This document shows positions 33,696 through 60,958 of a stretch of DNA of 64,000 nt, piece by piece. The first letter of the stretch is position 1, and each line of letters starts with the position of its first letter. The notes below the pieces were generated by a model that was not told the origin of the DNA, ran no database searches, and saw only the letters and a list, made by a program, of their open reading frames with translations. The stretch comes from Mytilus edulis. Its lineage: Eukaryota. Both the position numbers and the translations under genes were made by a program. The DNA lies in NCBI RefSeq assembly GCF_963676685.1, contig NC_092344.1, forward strand, positions 86,118,001 to 86,182,000. The letters are read 5' to 3'.

Positions 33696-35226
33696 CGATT
33701 CACCTCTATAAATATCAAATAACTGATGTTTTGTTTTATTTCTTCAAATAATTAAAACAATTTGACAATAATCCATGCATATTTTTTTTTTTTTTTTTAA
33801 ATGGATGCCAGAAACATTTTTTAACTGTTTATTTTGAAAAGTTGACCTTTTTGTGGACGTTGCATACATGGCATAGTGGCATATCGTCGTGTCATATGTT
33901 TTCGTATCATCCATATTTCATCGGTTTGGATTGCACACGCATATATCGTTACGGTTTTTCGGTTTTTATATTTAGAACAACAACACCACTACAACTTGAC
34001 AAATTTAAACCATATTCAAAGTCGCTTTTAAAGACGTTAGAACAAATTTAATAAAACTAACATATTTAGCCATTTTTATATAATGTCAAAAATATGCATC
34101 ACTAGAATAGTTGTTGAAAAAAATTCTGAAAGGTTAAAAATAAAGTCCAGACATGTTTTTTGGCTGTTAGACACAGGATCTTCAAGAAATGTGACTGTCA
34201 TGTGTTCTTTCAGCTGTTTTAATTACAAACCAGCGAGTTAAAATTAATAGGGTGCATATATAAAATGGTTGTTCAACCTCCATTCATTCAATATTCTATT
34301 GACAATTTTTTTTAACTATCCTTAATACATAATAAAGATGAAAAAAGTCTTAGCTTTTCACATTTAATCATATATTTTGAAAATTGCATTTTAATTCCTC
34401 AAAATAATGTCTTTAGTAGAAACCTGGTGCCAATCTGAAAAAAAAATCACAATGTTACAATTTCAGCACATGAAACATCAACTAAAACTATTTACAAGTG
34501 AGCTTTAGTACTGAAAAGAATTAAACATTTTTTGGGGGATTGAAGCATTTATAGAAAATACTCATTTCCGGATTTTAAATTCATTTCCTGTCAGTGTACT
34601 GATCCAGTTTCTTCTTCATACGAAAACATATGACGCTGTTTTTTTACATACGATTTTAGCAAAATAATCGGAAACAGTAAAAAATCGTAGTAAGCCTTGA
34701 CAAAATAATTCAAATACCTAAAAACATTCGACAGAACATGCCTTTTAAAGTTTGAAAACAAATGTGAATAAAAAATCAACAGTGAAAACCGTAAGCAGTG
34801 AAAATTGTTGTTAGTACGAAAACACAACACGAGGATACTGTACATTTTATTTTTTAGAGTAAATTGTTAATCTGTTGATACTGTGAATGTTTTGTGCATA
34901 TTTAAATATAGCTATGTCGACACGAAAGAAAGACCTGCATATTGTCAAATGATAAAAATACAAATTGTTATTCTCTAAGAAAACATGTCATGCATGTAAT
35001 ACTTCTGCTTCAATTTTTGCTGATGTCACTGATTTTGGTATAAATTTTCATGCAACATTGTCATTGTTACCGAAAATTATAAAAACAATGCATTATCTCA
35101 TTTATTTTGTGTAAAATGAACAATTGAATTCTGTCAAAATAGGTGATTTTGAAAATATTTTCATATGATAAATTTAAGATATTCTGTATTGAGAGTTTAT
35201 TATGTTTTATAGTAGATGTACTACAG

Positions 35227-38200
35227 ATGAAGATTATTTTTCATAGTATAAGAACATTGTGTAAATATCATAGTTTAACATTTGTACCTTATAAATACCT
35301 GTCAACAATGTCTACCGTTGATGCCAGTAAGCTAAAACAGCCTAATCCTATCATTGGAGTGTGTCAGTTGACCTGCACAGTGGATAAAGACAAAAATTTC
35401 CAGATTTCTAGAAGTTTGATAGAAAGGGCAAAAAGCAAAGGTGCAAAGGTTTGTATTGAGGAGTTGCAATAAATAAAGAGTGATAGACAATATAAGACAA
35501 TAAGACAATATTTTATTCGCACAAACACATTTACATTAAATGGTTATGGCATATAACACCAGTACTCCAAGGTTTGTTTTTAAGGCACAATAATCCTAAA
35601 CTGAAGTGTCAGAACCATGTTTTTAAAATTCATTCTCATCAGTCTTGATTTGACTAAGCACTTTTGAATCTGTCTTAATGTACTCCAAAATAAGGGCATC
35701 ACATGTTACGAGGAATATATATTGAAAAGCTTTCATTTACTACAGTATAGATCAACCATAAAAAAATCATGAATGCTTAAGGAAAGAGGTAGACAATACC
35801 AAAGAGACGTTCAGAAACAATAATTGTTTATAGAAAAAACAGAAAACCATAATCAAAAGAAAAACAGACAAACAAATCTAGAAAGCGCAGAAAGGTTAAT
35901 AATGAGCAACATGAACACACCAAACGTATCAAGTATACATTAAAGGGGATATGAGATGGACATTAATGAGGAAATTACTCAATAATACCAAAAAAATCCA
36001 CAGAATAAAACGTTTCTTTGATTTTTAGATGGTATTTTTACCAGAAGCAGTAGATTACATTGGAGAATCTAAACAACAAAGTATAGACATGGCAGAGGAT
36101 CTAAACGGTATAACTATATCCAAATATCAAGATTTAGCAAAACAGCTTGGAGTATGGATATCAGTTGGAGGATTCCACCAGAAGGTAAAATTAATAACAT
36201 TATATCAGTTGGGGTGTTCCACTAGGAGGGAAACAAGAAGTTTTATTAGCTGGTAACCAAATATGAATCCACCTTTATGATTTATTTTAAATTCAGTATA
36301 TTTTAAAGGTCATTGTTTTTAATTAACGTCATTGTTTTTAATTAAGTTTAACGTCTGAGCTGATACCTAGATAACTGTCATTTAATAGCTCAGCCTCATG
36401 AATCGTGTAAATACATGTATGTAGAGTAGGTGAGCATTCAATGAAAAGTTGGACACTGTGACTAACATTTCATGCTTCATTGGCATAAATAGAGTTGTTG
36501 TATATATATAGTATTTATGTGAATATAAGTAATAGGACTTCTTCTTTGACGAGGGTCATCATTAGGGCAAAGTTTTGACCATTGGTTAAGTTGAAAGTTC
36601 TTATCTCGTGTCTCAGTACTTATTAGACTGAAGATCATTTAAATGTGTGAAGAGATGAATAGGTTATTTTGACCAAATTATATATTTCCTTTTTATATTT
36701 ATTCAATTAAACTTATTGTGAATAACAAGAAAACCCATGTGCTTGTAAATAATTTAAGTTTTAAACTATGTCTATGCCTTATATTTAGTATGTAAAAAAG
36801 GATAACTTAAATTAAGAATAATCACCTCATGAAAGCTGGCATATATATAAGAGAGAAAATTCGACTGAAACACTATAAAATGTCTATGCATCCCTACAGA
36901 GTATAGAAGGGGTTTCAAGAGCATGCACATGAGACAACACTTGAAATCTCAGGACAAATTCCATACATCTGTCACCGCCCACCGGAGTTATAGCCCTTTA
37001 TTAGTTATAAGAAGAGAAAAAGTATTCTTAGTTTTATACATGCATCAATATTTCAGGTTAAAGAAGAGAAAAGATTGCTGAACACACATGTGCTGATAGA
37101 TAACAATGGTGAGATACAATCTACCTACAGTAAAGCTCATTTATTTGACCTTGACATTCCAGAGAAGGTCAGACTATGTGAGAGTGATTATACTGTTCCA
37201 GGAGACACAATGGTATCACCAGTGGAAACTCCTTTTGGCAAAGTTGGACTTTCTATTGTATCTTTTCTTTCTAGAATATCAAGATGACAGGCCAATTTTG
37301 TTTCAGTTTCTGAACATCTTACAAATGATTATGCCATTTTTAAATGATATAGAAAACCAAAACTATATAATATATTGTTAGATTTAGTGCAACTTTCTAG
37401 TAGTTCTATTAATCATGGACATATATCTCTTGATTACTAGTCTTTGTCTTAATATTTACTCTCTAAGTTTGTAAATTTAGATAGAACTGTTTAATATGCT
37501 CCTTAATACAGGCTATATCACTCTCTTTGAAGAATATTTGCAAATGTAGACATTTTATATATGAAACTAGTACAGTCATCCTGCAATTTCTGTCAATATA
37601 AGGACTATATAACAATGACAATTAAGACAACAGACAATTAAATGAATCTAAGTTTTGTAGGAAACATTGACATGGATTTTTTCCTTAATTTAGTTAGTGT
37701 TATGATTTAAGATTTCCAGAAATGTCTACTGCCTTAGCTAAGGAAGGAGCGGATATACTGACATATCCTTCAGCATTCACAGTACCAACAGGGATGGCTC
37801 ACTGGGAAGTAGGTAATAAATAAGTACCCCTTAGCATGCACAATCCCTACAGGGATGGCTCACTGGGAAGTAGGTAATAAAGAAGTACCCCTTAGCATGC
37901 ACAATCCCTACAGGGATGGCTCACTGGGAAGTAGGTAATAAAGAAGTACCCATTAGCATGCACAATCCCTACAGGGATGGCTCACTGGGAAGTAGGTAAT
38001 AAAAACATATCCCTCTTGTTTCACAGTCCTAACATAGATATTTTTCTAGGAAAAGCTAGGAAGTAGCCTACTCATTGAGGTCTAAGGGTGACAAGGGATT
38101 GCTGATTTTTTGTTAGCGTTACACGTGAAAGTCAAATTATTGTGCCGTGAACCGGGAAATGAAGTCTAGTGGGAAACAGGAAATTACAAAAAAATGAGAA

Positions 38201-41200
38201 TTGCTTACATGCATAGTGTAAGTGGGATACAGTAACCTGACAAAACAGTATGCGGGATCTGGGATCAGAACCCCCCAATGAGACCCCCTTATAACGAGGT
38301 TACCCTTAGCATTCTAAGTCCCTATAGTGATTGCTAAATTTATAAATGTATATCATATCAATGTACTCCTCTAATCCTTTAATGTGAAATTCATATTTTC
38401 TAATGAAAATGTTGACTGAGGGATTAAGGACTAAGCAATTTTCTTCAAATTTTCATCTTCATCTTCAGATGGAAAAACAATATTAAACAATAAATTTATC
38501 TTTTTTTAAAAAAAACCAAGAAAGTGTGATCATATGGTAATAATCATAATATGTTTTAGGTTTTATTACGAAGTAGAGCTATAGAGACACAGTGTTATGT
38601 GGTAGCAGCAGCTCAGACTGGGAAACATAATGAAAAAAGACAATCCTATGGTCATGCTATGGTATTTTTTTTTAATATATATATGATAAGGGGATGTGGT
38701 ATACTTATATATATATATATGATAAAGGGATGTGGTATACTTATATATATATATATGATAAAGGGATGTGGTATACTATCTATACCTAGTATCATATGAA
38801 TAAACGGTAGTATGTAGAATGCAACAGTGAGACAGCAACTCAATGAAAAAAAAAGTTGTGATGAAATGTAACGACGTTTGGAGATTACAAGCTCTACATT
38901 AACCAGTCTTAAAAAGTTGTGGATACATTTGACTGATAAAATTGAGAATGGAAGACGGGAATGTGTCAAAGAGAAAAAAATCTGAAGGCCACCAATGGGT
39001 CTTCAATACAACGAGAAAATCCTGCACCTGGATGCTATCAACACTACATTCCCAAGAGACAAAAATAAAGAATACCACAAAGATTACCATTTTTCTTGTT
39101 ATACCAGTAAGTTCACCTGATTAGAAAAAAATCAGCATAATAAAGTTGTGTCTAGACATTGATAGATTTAACCTTTAAAATCATAGAAAGAGTACTGTGA
39201 ATTCACTATTATTGGACACCAATTTTTGTTGGTTTTGTTGGAACAGGTGAACCACGAATTTAAATGTTCAACAAATTGCAAATTTTATTTAGACCTTGTA
39301 TGCAGACAGTTTTCCTCCATCTACAAAAATTGATACCCACGAAAATAAATGAATCCACAGTATGTAGATAGACTAGAACAACAAAACACTTGAATCACAA
39401 AATAAAAGATAACTGGTATCAGGTTTTCTGAACGTTTGGTGGTTGTAGTTAAAGTCATACACTTGTAATAAGGAATATTTTCTTTTATTGTAATAATTGT
39501 GTTCTTATTTCATGTTCTTTTCATTGAATTACACACTTGCCCTTTAGAAATATCAATGAAAGAATTGTCCAGAATATGTATGAAATATTTGCCACTGGAC
39601 GTAAAGAAACCAATGATCACTCAATCAATAAAAGAATAGTACAACTTCATAGTATTTACATTACCTGTAAACATTCATACAGCTGTATTAGCAGAATTGA
39701 TATTTTACTAATACAGGTAGTAGATCCCTGGGGAGCAGTAATTGCACAGTGTAGAGAAGGTACAGATGTATGTGTAGCAGAAATAGATCTTTCCTATCTC
39801 AAAAGTGTCAGAGCCAACATGCCAATATGGAGTCATAGAAGACCAGACTTGTACGGAGAAATACAAAACTTATCAAAAAGTAATTTAACTTAACATTTTT
39901 ATGATTCTTAAATGGCACTGGGGTGTCATAAAATAATAAATTATTATTACAATATACATGTATTACTGGTACATTAAAGTTGAGGTATTAAAAAATACAA
40001 GATGAAAGTAGATGCATTTATTGCTCTTGGTAAAATTTAGGTTCTCAATCTGAAGTTTCTATTAAACGCAATAATGACTATTGTTTTGTCCTTATCTTTT
40101 AAACATTGTGTTGTGCATAATTTTTCATGTTTGTAAGATTCCATTAATTTTTGTGTTCACTTGTCAGAAAATTGAATATATAAATAAATTGTAGATTCTT
40201 CTAAGAATACAGTTATTTTGAAGACCCATTGGTGGCCTTTGGCTGTTGTCTGCTCTATGGTCGGGTTGTTGTCGCTTTGACACATTCCCCATTTCCTTTC
40301 TCAATTTTATTTCCTTGGAAATTTCATTTAACCCACATATTTCTTTTCAGGTCCAGGCTGTGATATTGATAGTGAAGAGAAGTACCAGTTTGGACATTGT
40401 TGGATTAAAAACACTCAAGTTTTCTATAAAACCAAATTAAGTTATGCTTTTGTGAATATAAAACCTGTTTTTCCTGGTCATATCCTTTTAAAAATTCAGA
40501 TAAAAGTGCTCAGTAGGTGGAGGTTGTGAAATTGACAAAACATTTCTTACTGTCATTAGTAACAATTGCACCACATACAAACAATTATAAGATCTCTGAC
40601 TTTTCTCTGCTGTCAAAATTTTAAGAGAATACAGGAGTTCCAAACAAAATGGAGAACATGTATAATCATACCTAACCTTGAAAAACCTTACCCTAGCACA
40701 GAACAAACCCATACTATAAATTAGCTCAACTCTAAAAAAACAAGGACCCTGTAGTAAAGGAGGGTCATAGTTGACTAAATATTCAGACATGAAAGTTTTG
40801 GCTCATAAAAAAATGCAAATTCTGAATAAACATGAATCTTAAATGATATAAACATACAACAAATTTTCTTCAAAATCCCTGAAATTGTTATAAAATTTTA
40901 TTACTGTGGTGAATCAAATACTGTTTTGTTCTGTAAATCTGTCAGTTTTAGATTGTTGTACCTCTATACTGCATTTTTTTTCTTGAAACAAATTATAGCA
41001 ATTCTTATCCTTAACTTTAATGCACATGTATTAGTTGCACCTTTACGTCTAGCAGAGAGACTGTGTGACTTGTCACCTACAGAAATATCAGATGTGTTCA
41101 ACACAGTTCAGACTGTTTCTAATGTAATAAAAAAACATTTCAATGGGACATCACTGACAGTTGCTGTTCAGGATGGCAAAGATGCTGGACAAACAGTTAA

Positions 41201-42694
41201 GGTAACTTATCAATGTATTTACAACAAGAATGTGTCAATAGTACATGGATGGCCCATTCACACAATCCTTTGCTATGTTCAGTGGCTTGTAAAAGGAGTA
41301 GGTTCAGTAAGACCCCTTTTTGGGCCCCAAAATATAACAGTTTTACAAAATTGTGAAAATGTAATCTTTTATCTATTTATTGGAAAGTAGAATACTTCTG
41401 CTACACAAATATGAGCTGTTTTTGACAATTCAATGCACATATATTGGGTACTAACATCATTAAGTCATGCTAAATTACTGAAATCTTCACAGTTTTAGCA
41501 TTTTAGTTAAATTTTAGACGGTTTCTGTCTTAAATGAAAGTGGCCGCATTCATGTTCATTCATATTATTGAAATGTTAGTTGTATTTGATGATAATACAT
41601 AACATATATAAAGGTTGACAAAAAACTTCTGAAAAGTGACGATTTTTTGCATAATAGATTTTTCATATTTAAGCTTGAATCTGAGCGTTTTTAATGTCTT
41701 AATCAGTTAAAATCTTTCACCTAAACTAATTGAATCAATTGAAATAGACACTTAAGTGTTTAAAAAGTGTCCAAAATATTTCGTTAGACGAATCCGGAAT
41801 TTGAGGCCAAAATCGGCCCTTACCTGACCTACTCCTTTGGGTAAAAACTCTAATTTGGCATTAAAATTAGAATTATCATATCATACAGAACATGTGTACT
41901 ACATTTCAAATTATTTGGACTTCAACTGCATCAAAAACTACCTTGACCAAAAACTTTAACCTGAAATGGGATAGACAGATGGATGAATGGATATACAGAC
42001 AGAAAAACATAATGCCCCTAGTTGTGTCATATGGATAGATAAAACTATAATTTTGTGACTAAACTGTACAAAGAAAGCAATTCAGTTGAAAGAAAGTTGA
42101 AAGCTCTCATCTTTTTCTTTTTAGTAAATTATGTCCTTGAAATGTAAATAATAAAGACAAGTGATTGTGTTTTGTACAACCATGACAACTCTGGCTGTAT
42201 TTTACAATTGTAATATAACCAATTTGGCTTTTTTTCAGCATTTTCATGTTCACATCCTACCAAGAAGAGAGCAAGATATTCCAAATAATGATGATATATA
42301 TCATGAGGTATGCATTATTAACTAAGTTCTTTAATGAGGCACACTTTTCACATTTTAATTTGAAATCTAATGTTGAAACTTATGTAAAAAATGATACAGG
42401 GTAAACATAGACAATGAAAAATACTACCCAAGAAGTGATACATTCAAAAGATTAGACCATCAACTGAACATGACCTTTTTTAAGTTATTAGTAAACTTTT
42501 ATAAATACAGTGTTATTTAATTCAAGTTATCATTGCAGTTTCTTAAAAAAAATATTTATGAAAAGCATATTACCGTTTTTGAATTTTATTTACAGCTTGA
42601 GAAGCATGATAAGGTCATGTTACAGTCTGATATGAGATCTGAAGAAGAAATGGAGAAAGAATCAAGAGAATTACGAAAGTATTTCAACCTATAG
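35227..42694 (+). CDS. NitFhit: Nitrilase and fragile histidine triad fusion protein (Nit1 deaminated-glutathione amidase domain + Fhit Ap3A hydrolase domain), 475 aa
   Basis: Exons 35227-35448, 36029-36184, 37057-37257, 37698-37808, 38560-38661, 39717-39879, 40351-40479, 41026-41201, 42239-42307, 42596-42694 give 1428 nt in frame. The nitrilase triad is present: E (FLPE), K (YSKAHLFD), C (ICYDLRFPE). Fhit motifs [30 protein letters not shown] motif HFHVH and RSEEEM are also present. Confidence 0.96.
37258..37697 (+). other. U12-type (minor spliceosome) GT-AG intron
   Basis: 5' splice site GTATCTTTT; branch site TTCCTTAAT at 37681-37689, about 10 nt before AG 37696-37697; no polypyrimidine tract. 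Splicing restores ...GLSI|CYDLRFPE. Confidence 0.85.
37760..38003 (+). repeat. 61-bp tandem repeat made of the exon 3' end plus the 5' splice site (4 donor copies)
   Basis: CAGGGATGGCTCACTGGGAA|GTAGGTAATAAA occurs four times at a 61-bp period (donors 37809, 37870, 37931, 37992). Confidence 0.92.
38676..38780. repeat. ~36-bp tandem repeat with (AT)n, 3 copies
   Basis: (ATATATATGATAARGGGATGTGGTATACTT)x3, just downstream of the donor at 38662. Confidence 0.85.
39195..39360. mobile_element. Small Tc1/mariner-type MITE
   Basis: TA|CTGTGAATTCA...TGAATCCACAG|TA. Confidence 0.7.
40480..41025 (+). other. U12-type AT-AC intron
   Basis: 5' splice site ATATCCTTT at 40480; branch site TCCTTAAC at 41008-41015; ends ...TGCAC at 41025. 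Splicing joins C|AT (His) to restore PGHVLVAP. Confidence 0.95.
41292..41838. mobile_element. Kolobok-like MITE nested in a HINE (~41222-42030, minus strand)
   Basis: TIR AAAGGAGTAGGTTCAGTAAG...CTTACCTGACCTACTCCTTT. The flanks rejoin into the same HINE family as 5839-6130, in reverse orientation. Confidence 0.7.
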
Positions 42695-43669: not shown

Positions 43670-45530
43670 CACTGACGAATGAACCATGAAAGTTAGGTCA
43701 CGTTCAGATGAACTTGACAGATTGTGCACCACTCAATCATTTCAATCACACCAATCATTCCATACACCAAATTGCTATAGTAAATGAAAACGATGTCAAG
43801 GACAATGGACATAAGACTGACTGAAACTTTATATGATAAGGCATGTGTATGCATGTGGGAAGCATCCAGGTCTTCTACCCTTTTGTCAGTGGTGAGATAA
43901 AAACTGTACATTGAACAATGAATAATGAAAATGAGGTCAAGGTCAGATGAGACCTGCCAGACAGACATGCACCATACAATAATTTCGTTTACCAAGTGAA
44001 ATTGACATAAGGCTTATAGTACAAAAGGATCAACCTTACAATAAAAACTTTACATTGACCAATGAACCATGAAAATGAAGTCAAGGTCAGATGAACTAGA
44101 CATAATTTTGCATTTTACAATCATTACATACATCAAAATATAGTTGACCTACTGCTAAGAGTTTTGGATTAACAGATTTAAATACAAGAGTGCACACTGA
44201 AATTTCTCGCCTTCTTTTCTAACCATTGATATTATGTTGATAGTCCTAAATAGAAAGCTTTACTACAAATATTACATAAACTTAACATGATCTTAGAAAA
44301 TGAGGTCAAGGTCATATAAAACAAACAACAAGAAATACTTGTACACCTTACAATCATGCAATATACTAAATATAGTTCACCTATTGCTTATAGTTTCTAA
44401 GAAACAGACTTAAGACCAAAGAACCATGAAAATGAGGTCAAGGTCAGATGAAGCATGCCAGGCAGACATTTACAGCTTACAATTCTTCCATTCAACAAAT
44501 ATAGTTGACCTATTAAATATAGTTTAATGAAAACAGACCAAAACACATAAAATTAACACTAAGCAATGAACTGTGAAAATCAGGTCAAGGTCAAATAAAA
44601 CCTGTGAGACTGACATTTTCATCATAAAATATTTCCATACACCAAATATAGTTGACCTATTGCATATAGTATTAGAAAAAAAGACCAAAATTCAAAAACT
44701 TAACTTTGACCATTGATTCATGAAAATGATGTCAAGGTCAGATGAAATCTGACAGTTGAACATGTACACCTTACAATCATTCCATACACCAAATTTAGTA
44801 GACCTTTTGAGTACTCTATAAGAAAAACAGACCAAAACACAAAAACTTAACTATAACCACTGAACCATGAGGTCAAGGTCAGATGAAACCTGTCAGTTTA
44901 ACATTTACACCTTACAATCCTTCCATACACCAAATATACTCGCTCTATTTCTTATAGTATCTGAGATATGTACTTGACCACCAAAACTTATCCTTGTTCA
45001 CTGATCCATGAAATGAGATTAAGTGAAAACTGTGTGATGGGCATGAGGACCTTGCAAGGTAGGCACATACCTGTCCAAATATATTTAACCTATTACTCAT
45101 AAGAGAAATTAACATTATATAAATACTTTTTTCAAGTAGTCGTTGAACCATGAAAATGAGGTAATGGACATGTGACAGACGGAAACTTCGTAACATAAAG
45201 CATCGATATACAAAATATGAAGCCTCCAGGTCTTCCACATTCTAAAATATAAAGCTTTTAAGAAGTAAGCTAACGCCGCCGCCACTACCACCAGATCGCT
45301 ATCCAAAAGTCGCAGATCGACAAAAACTTACTGTTGGCCAATGAACTATGAAATTGATGTCAAAGTCAGATGAACCCAACCAGGCAGACAAAAATCCATC
45401 TTACAATCAATCCATAAATCAAAGTTGACATACTGCTCATAGTATCTTAGAGATAGACCTGTTTACGAAAATTAACGTTGCTCGCTGATCCATGAAATGA
45501 GGTCGAGGTCAGGTGTGCCTTGTTTCACGG
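43670..45530 (-). repeat. HINE-associated ~140-bp satellite array (possibly one HINE inside another)
   Basis: Recurrent GAACCATGAAAATGAGGTCAAGGTCAGATGAA...CCATACACCAAATATAGTTGACCTA units; HINE-like ends near 44184 and 45325. Confidence 0.75.
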
Positions 45531-46437
45531 ACACGTATACTTGTTCCTTTGAAATTTCAACCAAAGATGAAGAACTGGATCTTCCATCACTGTATTGGAT
45601 TCCTAAATTACATAAGTGTCCTTACAAACAACAGCTGGGTCTTCCAAGTGCTCCACAAAACCTTTCTGAATTATTAACATCTACTTTATCAGCAATCAAA
45701 GACGGGCTTCAAAGTTATTGTGAAACTGCCTATTCTAGAGGTGGCGTGAATCAGATGTGGATACTTAAAAATTCCAAAGATCTTTTAGAGTACATACAAT
45801 CTAACTCTCTTTCATCTTGCAATAGTATTAAAACTTTTTTATTTTTCTACACCGTTTACACAAGTATTCCCAAATCCAAACTAAAAGACAAATTGAGAGA
45901 GTTGGTATTGCTTTGTTTCATAAAAAATAATGGCCAACGTAGATACAAGTATCATTTCTTAGGGAGGGATAAATCCTACTTTGTAAAGGATCACTCTGAT
46001 TCAAACAAAAAGTTCTCTGAAACTGACATTATCAAGATGCTTGATTTTTTATTGACAACATATTTGTTACGCTCGGAGGACGTGTTTTTCAACAAACTGT
46101 CGGCATTCCAATGGGAACCAAGTGTGCTCCTCTTATTGCCGACTTGTTTCTTTATTATTATGAGGCTGACTTCATACAGGAACTTTTTAGGAAGAAAGAT
46201 AAGAAGTTGGCAATATCCCTTAACTCTACTTTCCGCTATATAGACAACGTTCTTTCACTAAATAATTCAAAATCTGGTGACTATTTTAAACGCATCTATC
46301 CCATCGAACTAGAGATAAAGGATACAGCAGATACAGTTAAGTCGGCCTCATATCTTGACTTACATCTAGAAATTGACAATTAGGGTCGGTTGAAAACAAA
46401 ACTTTACGACAAAAGATATGATTTCAGCTTTCCAATT

Positions 46438-50465: not shown

Positions 50466-52628
50466 TTATTCCAGAAAATAAAAAGAGCTTTTTAACTCTT
50501 CATCGAATGGCATAAATCCTGTGCAAACATTTGAATTACAATAACATTTTGTGCCTGTTTTCTGGTCTGGTCTTAGCGTCCCATAAACAAATGATAGCTC
50601 TTCAAGGGGTTCAATATCTCTATTGGCAAATAAGCAAACTTTTGGAACCATATTATTTACTCGTATGGGAACCATTGATAAATTAGGAGAACAACTGTGA
50701 TTTATATACCTCCCGATATTTCCTAACTTATCTGGATCGACAAAGGTTTTTAGTATGTCATTTTTACAGTGCTCCTTTACAGTGAGTATATAATTCATGT
50801 CCGTATCTTTCTGTTTGTTACATCTACTTTGTGCTTCTTGTAAGGATATAATTTCTCCTGCATATTCACATACAAACGTTCCTGATTGTATTTTCTCCAA
50901 AGTCTGAAGACCAAGACCTTTATTGTCCGTATTGAAAATTTGTAATTGTACACTGATTCCGTGCTGTACTACCCTGTTTTGACACTGCGAAGAACATGAA
51001 CAGTTAGAATTACATTCAAATACAGGTGTTACACTGGACCCTAAAAGGGTTAGGTCTATTTTCTTGTCTTTGTATGCATTTCCATATTGAGCAGTACATT
51101 TGCAGTCTCTATCACAAGCTAGGCATTGACAGCCGAGAAGTTTATCTTCGAAATCATCCATCTCACAGCCTGGACCAGGAATGTTTTGTGTGACATACTA
51201 AAATGAAAATTCACAAAGGTAAGAAATAATAAGCAACAATGTCAGGTTAACGTTATCATGGTTATTGTTAAAATAAAAAATGCCGAAACCTTGTTAATGT
51301 ACTAAAATATGAATAACTGACCTGATATGAAAATGTTTGGTTACCGAAAAAAAGTAAACATTATTCTTTAATTATCATAAATGTTTCATAATTTTTTTTT
51401 AAAGATCTACATTGTAGCTCAATATATCTGTTTGTTTACCATGGACAGACGGTATTAACAAATTGCTGCTGAATTTCGTGACACGTATTAACCTGCATAT
51501 TTGGGATTAAGATGTCGAGTTGGGAATCATAACCCACTGGCTCACGTGATAAGACAGACTCGACAGGAATACATAACATCCTACCGGTACCCGGATACAT
51601 TTTCTGACTCTAATTGTAAAAAAGAAGATGTGACCATACCACAAAGTCAGCCATAAAAGACCCCGAAATGACAAATGTAAAACATTTCAAAAGACAAAAT
51701 TAACGGCCTAATTTAGTTCTGGATCCGCAACTGGTGTCGTTAGTCATGTTAGTACCAGAGACATATAATACAATGTATTATATGTCTCTGTTAGTACTAA
51801 ACTATACAGACTAATTTAATCCCGCTGCAAATGTTTGCACCTGTCCTAAGTCAGGAATCTGATGTACAGTAGTTGTCGTTTGTTTATGTAATATATACGT
51901 GTTTCTCGTTTCTCGTTTTGTTTATATAGATTAGACCGTTGGTTTTCCCGTTTGAATGGTTTTACACTAGTAATTTTGGGGCCCTTTATAGCTTGTTGTT
52001 CGGTGTGAGCTAAGGCTCCGTGTTGAAGGCCGTACTTTAACCTATAATGGTTTACTTTTTAAATTGTTATTTGTATGGAGAGTTGTCTCATTGGCACTCA
52101 CACCACATCTTCCTATATCTATAATAGATTCCCCTTACAACATTTTTAATGACCTATACTACCAACAAGTACGCAAACATGCAGTGATTATACACAATGA
52201 AATAATTGTCTGACAATCTTTTGACATGTTTTGACAAAAATTACAATAAAGATATTATTTGACAATTCACTAAAGTAATTATTTTTCTAACTGTGTCTGG
52301 TGAGGAATCAAGAATCCAAGAAAGTAACATGGCAGCATCTTTTATCATCTATAATGTTGGTCCTGAGACTACTGACTACTATAACACAGTGTTACAGTAG
52401 TCATAGTAGTCTCAGATTGATCACACAATACAAAATAATAAACAAGTCCGAAATGTTATACGTAGTGTACATAAAATTAACACTTTATAGATATACTGAT
52501 TTTCGACACCAAATAAGAACCTTGGGACATACCTTCGATTTCTTCATCTTGAAGATAAGAACTTTGTCATTGCTAAATATTGCTTTGTTTTCAAGTCCTT
52601 CAGTCCAGTCAAACTTATTAATATCCAT
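50466..52628 (-). CDS. SETMAR: SETMAR-like histone-lysine N-methyltransferase (pre-SET/SET/post-SET, no mariner domain), 275 aa
   Basis: Exon 1 is 52628-52533 (MDINKFDWTEGLENKAIF...K|gtatgt) and exon 2 is 51197-50466 (tttag|YVTQNIPGPG...GCQC...FECNSNCSC...KGLGL...FVCEYAGE...RYINHSCSPN...EELSFVYG...CYCNSNVCTGFMP). Confidence 0.88.
51756..51790. mobile_element. 35-bp perfect hairpin (17+1+17) with 7-bp TSD; candidate P/Galileo-type excision footprint
   Basis: CAGAGACATATAATACA-A-TGTATTATATGTCTCTG, flanked by TTAGTAC at 51749-51755 and 51791-51797. Confidence 0.8.
52363..52415. mobile_element. 53-bp hairpin with degenerate 7-bp flanking repeat
   Basis: CTGAGACTACT...AGTAGTCTCAG; flanks GTTGGTC / ATTGATC (5/7 match, both differences are transitions). 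Confidence 0.5.
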
Positions 52629-53809: not shown

Positions 53810-55210
53810 TCAGCACATGATTTCTCTATCGTCGTCTAAGTCCAGCTGTGGCATGTCCAGATGTGGCATGTCCAACTGAGGTGACCGGTACAACATTGGT
53901 GTCCTTGATCTTGGAGTTTGCATGACTTTTTGTAGATGCTGGGGAACATTCCTGAAAAACTGTGAAATCGGAGATCGAGAGATGGGTTTAACCATGGCAA
54001 CAGGTTTGTTTTTGGTTGTCGATGGAGGAAAATTCCATTGCCTCTGTTCTGGTTGGTTTTTGGCTGTACAACACTTCTCGTCGACTTTGCTCACCACGAT
54101 ATCTGGAAGAGGTCTCCTTTCTGGTAAACTGGCGTCACTGCTCTCGCTACTTTGTCTATGGCGGGGTGAAAACAAACCACTCTTCCTTCTTTTATCTGGT
54201 GAAATTCCTAAGTCAATGACATGAACAAGAGATCGTCTTCCTGACTTCTTTTTTGGAGTTAGTTTAGGCGATTCTGTCAACACGCTGTCATCTAACGTTT
54301 TCAGTGGCCGATTGTTTTTTGTAACACTTTGAAGATACAAATGATTAGGAATTTCCATCTCTTTCCAAAAACTTGACACTTCTTCAGCAAGATCTTGTGG
54401 AATTTTAAACAAATTGTTTCCAGATTCAATCATAAATGCAACCAGGTGACAAAATGTCTTAGTAGTTGTTTGCAGTTCAGTCCCGCTTGATGATTTATTG
54501 CAGAGAAAATGAGGAGTGAATATAATAGCCAGTGAATCCGCTGTCATGAGATTTTCCGGTGTTTTTGAAGTACGATGAAGTAGTGTGATCAATGGTCTCA
54601 GTAAGCAATAGTTGTCACTTGGCATCAGTAACATCAGCATTTGTAGAGCTTTCAAAGTTGTTGTTTTGGCTTTATCTTCGGTTGTCAGTAGACATGCTAA
54701 TCTAGTATACACATTATGGAATCTGTTCGTTAGAAGTGGTTCACAGAGGTCTCGTATGAAGTTCTTTAGCACGTTAGCTCCATCATGAGACGAAATTAGT
54801 TCCAAGTCAATCATGGAACACTCCAGAAGTTGTTTTCTAACAGTTTTCTGGCGGCTTATGTTTCCAGTTTTACGGAATAGTCCTTCATCTTTGATGTTGT
54901 AACTTTTTCCAATGAATTCAATCAAGACTGTGAGAGCAGAAATGGAATCTGGTGTTAGCTGTGTGAATTCCCTCTTTTTAATAGACTTTCTGTAGAACGA
55001 GAGTCTGGAGCTTTTGCGTTTGAGTGTAACCTTCTCAGGGCTCTTTCTGTTCACTTGAGAGTCTATTTCTTGTGTTGTCATAGTCACTGCTTTACCAAGA
55101 CTACTAAGCACCATTTCTTCGAATTTGTTTGGCATGCTATTTTTTAATCTGAAGACATTCCGTTCTGCCTGTTGCTGGCATCTATTGCGTCTAAGAGAGG
55201 ATGTAGACAT
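53810..55210 (-). CDS. Rho GTPase-activating protein, ARHGAP19-like paralogue A (single coding exon, 466 aa)
   Basis: RhoGAP motifs EGLFRKTGN (Arg finger), ANVLKNFIRDLCEPLL and NLMTADSLAIIFTPH; the N-terminal segment RLKNSMPNKFEEMV resembles ARHGAP19. Confidence 0.9.
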   Translation of the reverse strand: MSTSSLRRNRCQQQAERNVFRLKNSMPNKFEEMVLSSLGKAVTMTTQEIDSQVNRKSPEKVTLKRKSSRLSFYRKSIKKREFTQLTPDSISALTVLIEFIGKSYNIKDEGLFRKTGNISRQKTVRKQLLECSMIDLELISSHDGANVLKNFIRDLCEPLLTNRFHNVYTRLACLLTTEDKAKTTTLKALQMLMLLMPSDNYCLLRPLITLLHRTSKTPENLMTADSLAIIFTPHFLCNKSSSGTELQTTTKTFCHLVAFMIESGNNLFKIPQDLAEEVSSFWKEMEIPNHLYLQSVTKNNRPLKTLDDSVLTESPKLTPKKKSGRRSLVHVIDLGISPDKRRKSGLFSPRHRQSSESSDASLPERRPLPDIVVSKVDEKCCTAKNQPEQRQWNFPPSTTKNKPVAMVKPISRSPISQFFRNVPQHLQKVMQTPRSRTPMLYRSPQLDMPHLDMPQLDLDDDREIMC

Positions 55211-55251
55211 TGTTTGTCGTCTTTTGATCGCTGTGAATGTGCAAAAATAAT

Positions 55252-55292
55252 TGAAGTATGAATAACTAATTTAATCTACTATTTTTATATAC
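55252..55292 (-). promoter_or_regulatory. Candidate TATA box and Inr for RhoGAP paralogue A
   Basis: Minus-strand TATATAAAAA at ~55291-55282, with an Inr-like TCATAC about 30 nt downstream and the ATG at 55210. Confidence 0.35.
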
Positions 55293-58531: not shown

Positions 58532-60958
58532 ATGTTTTCAAACCGGTCTTCATGTAAGTCCTCATATTTACCATATATATCCATGTACTGAGGTTATTAA
58601 ATTGTTCATTTTATTAGTTTTGAAAATGAATGAATTAAATGAATTACAACAGTACTATTTCGAATTATCGATCCAGAATTTTCAGTAAAACATTTATATG
58701 AAATTCATTGATTTTATAAAATCATTTGTCATCGAGAAGAAATTTTCTATTTTGTCAAAAAATATTAAACAAAAACCAATAAGTTTATGATGACTGTGGA
58801 GCTGCAAGTGCCATATGGACTGACTCTCGAGTCTCCCTTTATCAATGAACAAATATTGTCTAATATCATGGAAGTATTACATTCACAGGAACTTCTATAT
58901 ATATTATTAATCAGAATTATTATTTTGTATGTATTTCACGTAACCAAGGAGGTCATGTAACCTCCTTGACGTAACTTTGATATGCTCGCAATAATTTCTA
59001 TGATTAGGAAAATAAGGACATAAATAAATTAAGAATATTAGTATTATTGTGCGTATTATTCAAGAAGCAGAGTCCAAATACACTTTGAATATCAATAACC
59101 GATAGAGCAATTGCATGATTTGACAATTGCTACAGTACCCAATCACACATCGTTGGAACCCACCAAATAAGAAGCCACTAAGCAACACACACACTGATAA
59201 AAATTGAGAATTCAAAGTTATATTTTTACTAAAGAAAATGAATTTCAAACTAAAGATAATGAATGAAGCAAGTTAAAAGTGCATTTTTGGGTAACATCAT
59301 AGCACTGAACTCCGTTAAACATAATCATCAGCTATTGATATATAACTTATTTTACAAAGACCGATATGAATATTACATCCATACTTATAACACTAAAAGA
59401 GTATCACATATACAATACATATATAAGGAGATGAAGGTATTTTACATTAATGAGACAGCATCCCAACAAGACAATAAAGTCATAAAACAATTTGCAGTTT
59501 TAATAATTTATGGCTCATGATTCTATAATATATTAGCTTTATTGTGGATCTATATTAAATCTTTAGTATTAGTTATTATATTTTTATATTACATTTATTT
59601 CAGGGTCTCCAGCACAGTCCGTCAGTAGACTAACACTTCCTGTAAATAGAAGAACCCGTTTTCAACCATCAGAAAAGCACGTATGTAGACTACAGAATTG
59701 CATGCCTCTGAAGTTTAAAGAGTTTGTAAAGTCACACTTATCAACAATCCTTGAAATACCACAAGATGACCTTGAGACATTGATGATATCACCTACTGCA
59801 CCTGTTCCACAACACAAGACGGCTCTTTCGTTCAGTAAGAGAAAAGCTCAGAAACAGTCTATGTTTGGCTCCGACCTTTCACCAGAGAATATTGCATCAG
59901 TGCTTCAGTTGATCAACTACCTCTCCCAAGATGGCGTCATATCTACAGAAGGTTTATTCCGTAAAACTGGTAACATATGCAGACAGAAGCAGTTGAAATC
60001 AAAGCTAGACTCAGCAACACTTACCGAGAAATACTTGTCATCGTTATCTCCACACGACAGTGCCAACGTTCTCAAACGCTACATTCACAATCTACCAGAA
60101 CCTCTTCTAACTCAAAAGTTCTTCAATGTATATGTTCAGATTACCAACATCACCAAGTCAACAAAAGAAGAAACAATGTCTGCCAAGATCCAAGCTATGC
60201 AACTTGTTCTCCATCTTTTACCATCCGACAACCTCAACTTATTGAAGCCATTGATGACACTCCTCAACAAAGCCGCATCCATCTCTAGTAACCTGATGAC
60301 AGCTTATTCTTTGGGTATTTTATTCGCACCTCATCTTCTCTGTGACCGTCATTCGTCAGCTGACAATCTTCACTCTGTTCTACCGAAAGTTTCCGATTTG
60401 GTTTCCATAATGATAGAGAATGGCCCACATATATTTAGTATACCTAAAGACTTGTCTCGATCCGTAGCTAACTTCTGGCGAGAGATGGAGGTACCAAACC
60501 AGCTTTATTACAGAACAGTTCAAGAAACTACAGACTCAGCTGTTATAGACAGGACGTCACCGAAAGTTCACGTCGTAGACCTCTGTGACAAGCCAAAAGC
60601 CACCAGTACACTCACAGTGCCCTTCACACCTCCAACAAAATCTCGTAAGAGACTGAGTAGTGACACTAGTGATGGTATCCCAGAGAAGAGACCTACACCA
60701 GAGATGTTCCTTTCACCATTATGTAATGTACTCGACTTTAAGCCAAAACTCAGTAAGCAGACTAATTCCATCATCTTCAGTACAGCACCTGGATCTTCTT
60801 CCAAGAAACCAGTAGCACGTGTTAAACCAATTCAACATTCACCCATATCTCAGTTCTTCAAGAGTGTGCCACTCAAGCTTCAGCGGGTTATGTCAACACC
60901 GAGATCTCGTGCTCCGATGGCTCTGTTTCAGTCACCAAGCCACTGTGTGAAGTTTTAA
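58532..60958 (+). CDS. Rho GTPase-activating protein, ARHGAP19-like paralogue B (about 458 aa)
   Basis: Main exon 59604-60958 (tttcag|GG) is open upstream of ATG 59702 and homologous to the N-terminus of paralogue A. A proposed start exon 58532-58553 (ATGTTTTCAAACCGGTCTTCAT|gtaagt, phase 1) fits the frame. Motifs EGLFRKTGN, LPEPLL and NLMTAYSLGILFAPH are present. Confidence 0.88.
58945..58968. mobile_element. 24-bp hairpin with 7-bp TSD; candidate P-type footprint
   Basis: CAAGGAGGT-CATGTA-ACCTCCTTG, flanked by ACGTAAC at 58938-58944 and 58969-58975. Confidence 0.72.

Follow-up and report, generated by a model that had tools for sequence, protein, structure and literature searches.

NitFhit proteins carry a nitrilase-family (Nit) domain and a Fhit domain in one polypeptide. 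A first-pass annotation of the DNA studied here named Drosophila and C. elegans as the sources of the classic fusions. The fusion is known across protostomes: it has been placed at the base of Protostomia, and its occurrence outside fly and worm had already been reported for Lophotrochozoa (bioRxiv 10.1101/2023.07.10.548381). In humans the Nit counterpart, NIT1 (deaminated glutathione amidase), is a separate gene, and its product has a Glu-Lys-Cys triad and an N-terminal extension (PMC13445238). Bovine FHIT has a giant intron 5 of >565 kb that begins on a U12 donor of the GT kind, has CCTTAAC as its branch site and ends in AG (PMC1513570, Table 2). PMC6717393 counts human and mouse FHIT among minor-intron genes, their introns having GTATCCTTT donors and spanning 522,707 and 551,319 nt, and intron 5 is the major deletion target of the gene in human cancers (PMC1513570). 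Minor (U12-type) introns are relatively abundant in molluscs (PMC10639083), and genes with two of them form a known excess class (PMC7367187). Two minor introns in one gene, as in the SCN/CACN1 channels, and AT-AC/GT-AG differences between orthologues have each been described (PMC2831892, PMC7367187). Here we analyzed a 64-kb window of Mytilus edulis (the window being the whole stretch of DNA examined), which holds a single NitFhit fusion gene of 10 coding exons on the + strand at 35227-42694.

We propose, with a probability of about 0.75, that this gene is spliced at two U12-type introns, introns 3 and 7, likely an inheritance from early animals and likely affecting the message as a whole and not one enzyme. 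The comparison links a 546-base AT-AC intron of a mussel to the 0.5-Mb intron of the human FHIT tumor suppressor, which is prone to deletion. The match in position would date the FHIT intron to early bilaterians and add a switch of subtype to its history, and the mussel intron is small enough to be cloned whole for splicing tests. In the literature searched we found neither this miniature AT-AC version of the FHIT intron nor the Nit1 minor intron, which is missing from the mammal-centered lists.

The mussel gene and its two U12-type introns

The joined exons encode 475 residues, identical to a Mytilus NitFhit-like protein in RefSeq (XP_071137976.1; P0167), and a genome search found one NitFhit copy. 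Pfam domains follow one another in a single reading frame, CN_hydrolase at residues 43-296 and HIT at 339-431, and residues 30-466 match the worm NitFhit structure 1EMS (E = 2.6e-140). In alignments to 1EMS and human FHIT, the Glu-Lys-Cys and HxHxH triads are both intact; domain order and catalytic residues are those of the C. elegans and Drosophila proteins. Deaminated glutathione amidase and diadenosine triphosphate (Ap3A) hydrolase activities are predicted for the mussel protein. All 120 listed homologues, from molluscs, annelids, nemerteans, one brachiopod and arthropods, carry both domains. The C. elegans genome is without any U12 introns; the mussel gene keeps two. The introns and their flanking exons are as follows.

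37057..37257, + strand: coding exon 3, with the catalytic Lys; its last codon is the Ile preceding Cys
37258..37697, + strand: intron 3, 440 nt, U12-type GT-AG, phase 0, between I and CYD, directly before the codon of the nucleophilic Cys; ends TAG
37258..37266, + strand: intron 3 donor GTATCTTTT, one mismatch to RTATCCTT (T at +6, a G-U pair with U11)
37682..37689, + strand: intron 3 branch site TCCTTAAT, with 37688 as the predicted branch A; pairs with the box of the genome's own U12 small nuclear RNA (snRNA)
37698..37808, + strand: coding exon 4, opening on the Cys codon (CYD)
40351..40479, + strand: coding exon 7, with the linker and the first part of Fhit; closes on PG and base 1 of His35
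40480..41025, + strand: intron 7, 546 nt, U12-type AT-AC, phase 1, inside the His of PGH; ends CAC
40480..40488, + strand: intron 7 donor ATATCCTTT, the full RTATCCTT consensus, 0 mismatches
41008..41015, + strand: intron 7 branch site TCCTTAAC, with 41014 as the predicted branch A, 11 nt short of the intron's 3' end; pairs with U12 snRNA
41026..41201, + strand: coding exon 8, equal to human FHIT residues 36-93

Junctions were read from sequencing runs that we presume to be RNA. These are stored as contigs, which show presence and not level and are not single molecules; since their RNA nature is presumed as well, depth was not taken as a measure of level. Spliced contigs contained all nine junctions in 4/4 runs from four studies, the intron 3 junction (37257^37698) unambiguously so. 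The 546-nt skip of intron 7 (40479^41026) was present in 7/7 runs from seven studies, two of the runs being labelled as other organisms. This skip can slide by three bases, with possible ends CA..CA, AT..AC, TA..CA or AT..AT and none GT..AG; among the four equivalent cuts, only AT..AC begins on a full U12 donor. Nit and Fhit exons are joined on single contigs through 39879^40351 (run X1 record 1, run X3 record 9), a junction seen in 4/4 runs. Both junctions predicted by the first-pass annotation are thus used as claimed, and the outcomes that it had named beforehand as fatal, U2-type boundaries or Nit and Fhit exons never on one transcript, did not occur in the contigs.

Are the U12 signals meaningful? 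The motif RTATCYTT is frequent in this AT-rich window, occurring 13 times on the + strand and 12 times on the - strand. Since motifs alone are so common, we judged the signals real because they lie on junctions that are actually used. Introns were scored by a hand-made U11 pairing score and by how well they fit the branch box of the U12 snRNA encoded in the same genome. Only introns 3 and 7 combined a donor with at most one mismatch to RTATCCTT and a strong branch match, and they were the two best of the nine introns in matching the branch box; intron 3 was the best of all, with its branch A 9 nt from the 3' end. Intron 1 had a fair branch score and a poor donor. We rejected intron 5 (donor GTATTTTTT) as a third minor intron: its branch match is weak, and the matching donors in two metagenome loci, L019 and L023, read GTAAG. 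The genes for U12, U11, U6atac and U4atac snRNAs all score above the Rfam cut-off in the mussel genome. These data confirm a U12-type GT-AG intron before the nitrilase Cys codon (boundaries, donor and branch site) and an AT-AC one splitting the His of PGH (junction, full donor, branch site near the end), and we infer that U11/U12 would splice both.

Intron 7 and mammalian FHIT intron 5

Intron 7 interrupts the same codon, His35, in the same phase 1 as mammalian FHIT intron 5, although the ends differ. Bovine FHIT exon 5 ends with PG and C in phase 1, and exon 6 opens with the rest of His (PMC1513570); the exon ends given for human and mouse FHIT in the rows of PMC6717393 fit the mussel position as well. 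Introns 7 and 8 of the bovine gene match mussel introns 8 and 9, giving all three Fhit-domain introns of the mussel a counterpart in that source, and the mammalian domain has one intron more. The U12 donor and branch site are common to mussel intron 7 and intron 5 of FHIT, the FRA3B gene. In contrast, the mammalian intron is GT-AG (cow; GT donor in human and mouse) and spans 0.52-0.57 Mb, whereas the mussel one is AT-AC, measures 546 nt and sits in a fusion gene. This mismatch of terminal dinucleotides is a difference of subtype and leaves the positional orthology of intron 7 unbroken. Subtype switches are a known class, with 36 mixed-subtype clusters in U12DB (PMC2831892); within insects, 0 switches were recorded (PMC3291851). 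Intron 7 would then be older than the protostome-deuterostome split, with the subtype switched in one lineage. The direction usually proposed for such a switch is from AT-AC to GT-AG.

Proteins mistakenly translated into intron 7 give a view of its ends in other bivalves. The read-in of Mytilus californianus P0168 ends PGH-ILF, and Solemya P0027 reads through SLT to His, which would require the Solemya intron to end in C. These peptides suggest that other bivalves may share the ends of the mussel intron. Six candidate proteins reading into intron 7 were found, too few to map its subtype across animals; such peptides can nonetheless be used to trace both introns across species.

Unlike the channel genes and others with two U12 introns, NitFhit likely acquired its pair by the fusion of two genes with one minor intron each. 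The FHIT half of this history is shown by the mammalian gene; the stand-alone NIT1 half is presumed.

Intron 3 in other animals

Metagenome contigs were scanned with a pattern made of the end of exon 3 and a U12 donor, a design that returns positives only. All 22 loci recovered proved by tblastn to be Nit1 exons; each has a U12 donor of the GT kind at the codon used in the mussel, and 20 had the full donor consensus. The next exon was present in 11, and all 11 had a U12-like branch site and AG before CYD. The loci fall into 9 groups at 85% identity; some have insects and others lophotrochozoans among their best named matches, with 62-79% over 45-81 residues, a weak placement. The Fhit intron was readable in 0 of the 22. 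A gene model of the ark clam Tegillarca (P0008) reads into the same intron 3 donor. The groups of L008, L012 and L026 keep the minor intron before Cys and have no neighboring major intron after AHWE; this major intron is present in the mussel, L019, L022 and L023.

NIT1 had 0 matches in eight supplementary files of PMC6717393 and four of PMC7507305, which hold human and mouse minor-intron lists. Since NIT1 is off these lists, mammals seem to manage without intron 3 as a minor intron; human NIT1 may instead have an intron placed five codons ahead of the Cys. Neither FHIT, NIT1 nor NitFhit appeared in the supplements of PMC11347168, PMC2831892 and PMC3291851, and we found no paper naming Nit intron 3 and, beyond the FHIT entries of PMC6717393, none linking FHIT/NIT1 to minor introns, in a search that left the large online intron databases outside. 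Intron 3 would go back to the protostome fusion or further, and would have been lost, moved or converted toward mammals. Of the vertebrate counterparts to which the first-pass annotation pointed, FHIT matches in position and phase and NIT1 does not appear among the minor introns listed. The idea that the fused gene preserves ancestral minor introns is supported, by mammals for intron 7 and by invertebrate-like loci for intron 3.

Placement at catalytic codons

Exon 3 ends at 1EMS residue 168. The codon that follows encodes the Cys of CYD, which serves as nucleophile in the Glu-Lys-Cys mechanism given by PMC13445238. Cys follows intron 3 in 156/156 aligned proteins, and His stands at intron 7 in 155/156. 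The split His is His35 in human numbering, exon 8 covering FHIT residues 36-93, and is not the nucleophile His96, whose H96N mutant is enzyme-dead (PMC9913352). No paper on His35 turned up in the literature search. We take His35 to line the substrate site of FHIT. A major intron also adjoins the histidine triad:

41202..42238, + strand: intron 8, major GT-AG, directly before His94; same position as bovine intron 7
42239..42307, + strand: coding exon 9, 69 nt, with the histidine triad; length and ends equal bovine exon 8

The earlier claim that both minor introns sit at active-site codons is therefore exact for Cys; it fails to the extent that His35 is not the nucleophile and that a major intron touches the triad too.

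Chance was assessed under a uniform null over intron positions. Of the 475 residues, 98 are at least 95% conserved; four of the nine introns touch one of these, and 25% of positions would, giving P ~0.065 for both U12 introns. There is some excess of introns at catalytic codons, and it is not specific to minor introns; major intron 8 touches His94.

What, then, might keep introns at these codons? G at -1 has been proposed to start conversion to the major class (PMC7367187, section 14), and the same paper finds the -1 bias only in GT-AG introns. The residue before Cys is Ile in 128/156 proteins; of the 22 metagenome loci, 21 have T at -1 and the remaining one has C. The protein would fix the last exon base at both introns, Ile having no codon that ends in G and His having to begin with C. 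A shifted junction would damage the enzyme, and the junction would thus tolerate no move. With the -1 base fixed and the junction immovable, the route of conversion through -1 G would be blocked, and the introns would survive. Such survival bias is, we infer, the likeliest cause of introns at these codons.

Retention and the fate of unspliced RNA

If intron 7 is retained, translation stops after His and 15 further residues, which bears out the stop foreseen by the first-pass annotation; the 377-residue product keeps the Nit domain whole and loses HIT. Retention of intron 3 gives 202 residues and costs both enzymes. The retention stops lie 1160 nt (intron 3) and 741 nt (intron 7) before the last junction. 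By the 50-55 nt rule, a stop far upstream of the last junction makes a message a target of decay.

Contigs of intron 7 occurred in 5/7 runs (X1-X5) and were absent from the other two, X16 and X17; contigs of intron 3 are listed for X2 and X4. Among runs with contigs joining across them, major intron 9 was uncovered in 4/4 and intron 2 in 3/4. Minor introns are removed more slowly, and nuclear decay of unspliced U12 transcripts has been reported (PMC4066798); intron 7 contigs alongside uncovered introns 2 and 9 fit this slower removal. In run X2, unspliced contigs of two alleles tile 40512-41054, past an AATAAA at 40825 and into exon 8. Polyadenylation inside intron 7 thus has no support in X2, where these contigs pass the AATAAA and there is no poly(A) loose end.

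Decay of RNA that retains intron 7 is thus likelier than a Nit-only protein. The claim that retention removes Fhit and spares Nit holds for the reading frame, which gives a whole Nit domain; for the RNA, the stop and the X2 contigs favor decay. If unspliced RNA decays, slow minor splicing would lower both activities together.

Weighing the alternatives

Perhaps introns 3 and 7 belong to the major class and are not true U12-type introns? Intron 3 does carry T in place of C at +6, and major AT-AC introns are described (PMC1557818, PMC2831892). Such major AT-AC introns, however, are marked by G at +5 (PMC2831892), where intron 7 has C. Moreover, the full GTATCCTT donor occurs in 20/22 relatives of intron 3, and both branch sites, placed 9 and 11 nt short of the 3' ends, pair with the U12 snRNA of this genome. 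We regard assignment to the major class as highly improbable. Another possibility is that selection keeps introns at catalytic codons as a safety catch, with no active enzyme made before the minor spliceosome acts. The placement before a Cys and within a His that are themselves near-invariant, and the small probabilities under the uniform null, speak for such a catch. Yet any retained intron with a stop removes everything downstream, whichever codon is cut; the Fhit codon is not that of the nucleophile; intron 8, of the major class, touches His94; P is ~0.065 when all residues at least 95% conserved are counted; mammals, with NIT1 off their lists, seem to manage without a minor intron 3; and neutral processes have been argued to explain most minor-intron patterns (PMC10639083). 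Selection for a safety catch is accordingly very unlikely, and survival bias is preferred.

We also considered whether intron 7 is a regulated switch, in which retention or internal polyadenylation gives a Nit-only protein and uncouples the two enzymes. Retention keeps CN_hydrolase 43-296 and loses HIT, as in P0168; RefSeq isoform X1 of M. californianus has this Nit-only form; contigs of intron 7 stand in 5/7 runs against no cover of introns 9 and 2; and an AATAAA is at hand. However, a gene model is not a protein, contigs of runs guessed to be RNA record presence and not level, the X2 contigs run past the AATAAA into exon 8 without a poly(A) end, and a stop 741 nt before the last junction marks the message for decay. 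A regulatory role for intron 7 is unlikely on this balance. The bolder version, in which the protostome fusion joined two genes with a minor intron each and the mussel would use the ancestral AT-AC form of the FRA3B intron to un-fuse NitFhit, a Rosetta Stone protein, reversibly into a Nit-only enzyme as in the vertebrate arrangement, is distinctly unlikely. Unless a Nit-only product proves real, the understanding of minor splicing is unchanged, and we return to two U12 introns acting on the whole message.

Several points count against this last proposal. The dependence of introns 3 and 7 on the minor spliceosome rests on sequence signals, and the crude U11 pairing score alone fails to separate the T-rich intron 5 from intron 3. 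The scan for intron 3 required a U12 donor, so it has no denominator, and the placement of its loci rests on short BLAST matches, at 62-79% to named proteins. The ancestral subtype of intron 7, and with it the direction of the switch, is not rooted. Two of the nine introns touch the six catalytic residues, more than expected by chance under the uniform null (P ~0.01), and with His35 added afterwards the figure is 3/9 (P ~0.0006); attributing this excess to survival bias is a conjecture on our part, and 28/156 proteins have Thr, Val or Ser before Cys, where G at -1 is possible. Finally, a RefSeq isoform of M. californianus (P0168) ends inside intron 7.

Gene models

The first-pass annotation expected gene predictors to mis-model this gene. 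Several genome-derived models do: in M. galloprovincialis, P0001 and P0175 break at intron 3 and take in the end of intron 7 as extra sequence; 30 residues spanning intron 7 are missing from M. edulis P0002 and M. coruscus P0003; translation continues into an intron in Tegillarca P0008 and Solemya P0027; and the sequence of Saccostrea P0017 is odd at the site. RefSeq is correct, however, in four Mytilus proteins (P0166, P0167, P0169 and P0170). In a set of 53 named long homologues, selected by high score and length, one has a change of length at the intron 7 site and none at the intron 3 site. An open stretch of the window at 40836-41390 takes in the final 190 bases of intron 7 and continues in the frame of exon 8, and predictors can pad exon 8 with intron sequence (P0175) because of it. 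In practice, public mollusc models of NitFhit should be used with caution, several being split, shortened or padded at introns 3 and 7.

Other features of the gene and the window

The remaining coding exons and a repeat at exon 4 are listed here.

35227..35448, + strand: coding exon 1, ATG at 35227, 27-residue extension, second ATG at 35308; spliced contigs align from 35211-35212
36029..36184, + strand: coding exon 2, holding the catalytic Glu of the Nit triad (FLPE)
37767..38003, + strand: tandem repeat with a 61-bp unit (3.9 copies, 96% matches), by which the exon 4 end and GT donor recur within intron 4
38560..38661, + strand: coding exon 5, from spliced contigs
39717..39879, + strand: coding exon 6, end of the Nit domain
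42596..42694, + strand: last coding exon, running to the stop codon

Of the repeated exon 4 donors, the first was spliced in 4/4 runs. At the 5' end, the in-frame ATG of 35227-35307 adds 27 basic, acid-free residues ahead of the second ATG, giving two possible starts; the extension is likely a mitochondrial presequence, as in human NIT1. A contig of run X1 has 448 letters upstream of coding exon 1 without placement, and a contig of run X2 continues past 35200. Together these would point to an upstream untranslated exon and perhaps a second start.

Elsewhere in the genome, nitrilase-family sequence lies at G000:C1:87749469-87750260 and G000:C4:1723053-1744215; one frame is uninterrupted (35% identity), and two further copies contain stops (31-32%). 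Beyond this genome, P0063-P0100 and P0140 form a clade of NitFhit fusions, each predicted as one whole frame on metagenome contigs that reach 45.6 kb. It falls only loosely near the annelids in a FastTree tree, and its genes may be intronless, without even the two minor introns. Other long frames in the window are at 50466-51197 (- strand), 53810-55270 (- strand), 59573-60958 (+ strand) and 45476-46383 (+ strand); by recognition only, we take them to resemble a protein with a SET domain, a related pair of RhoGAP-like proteins encoded on opposite strands and a broken piece of reverse transcriptase.

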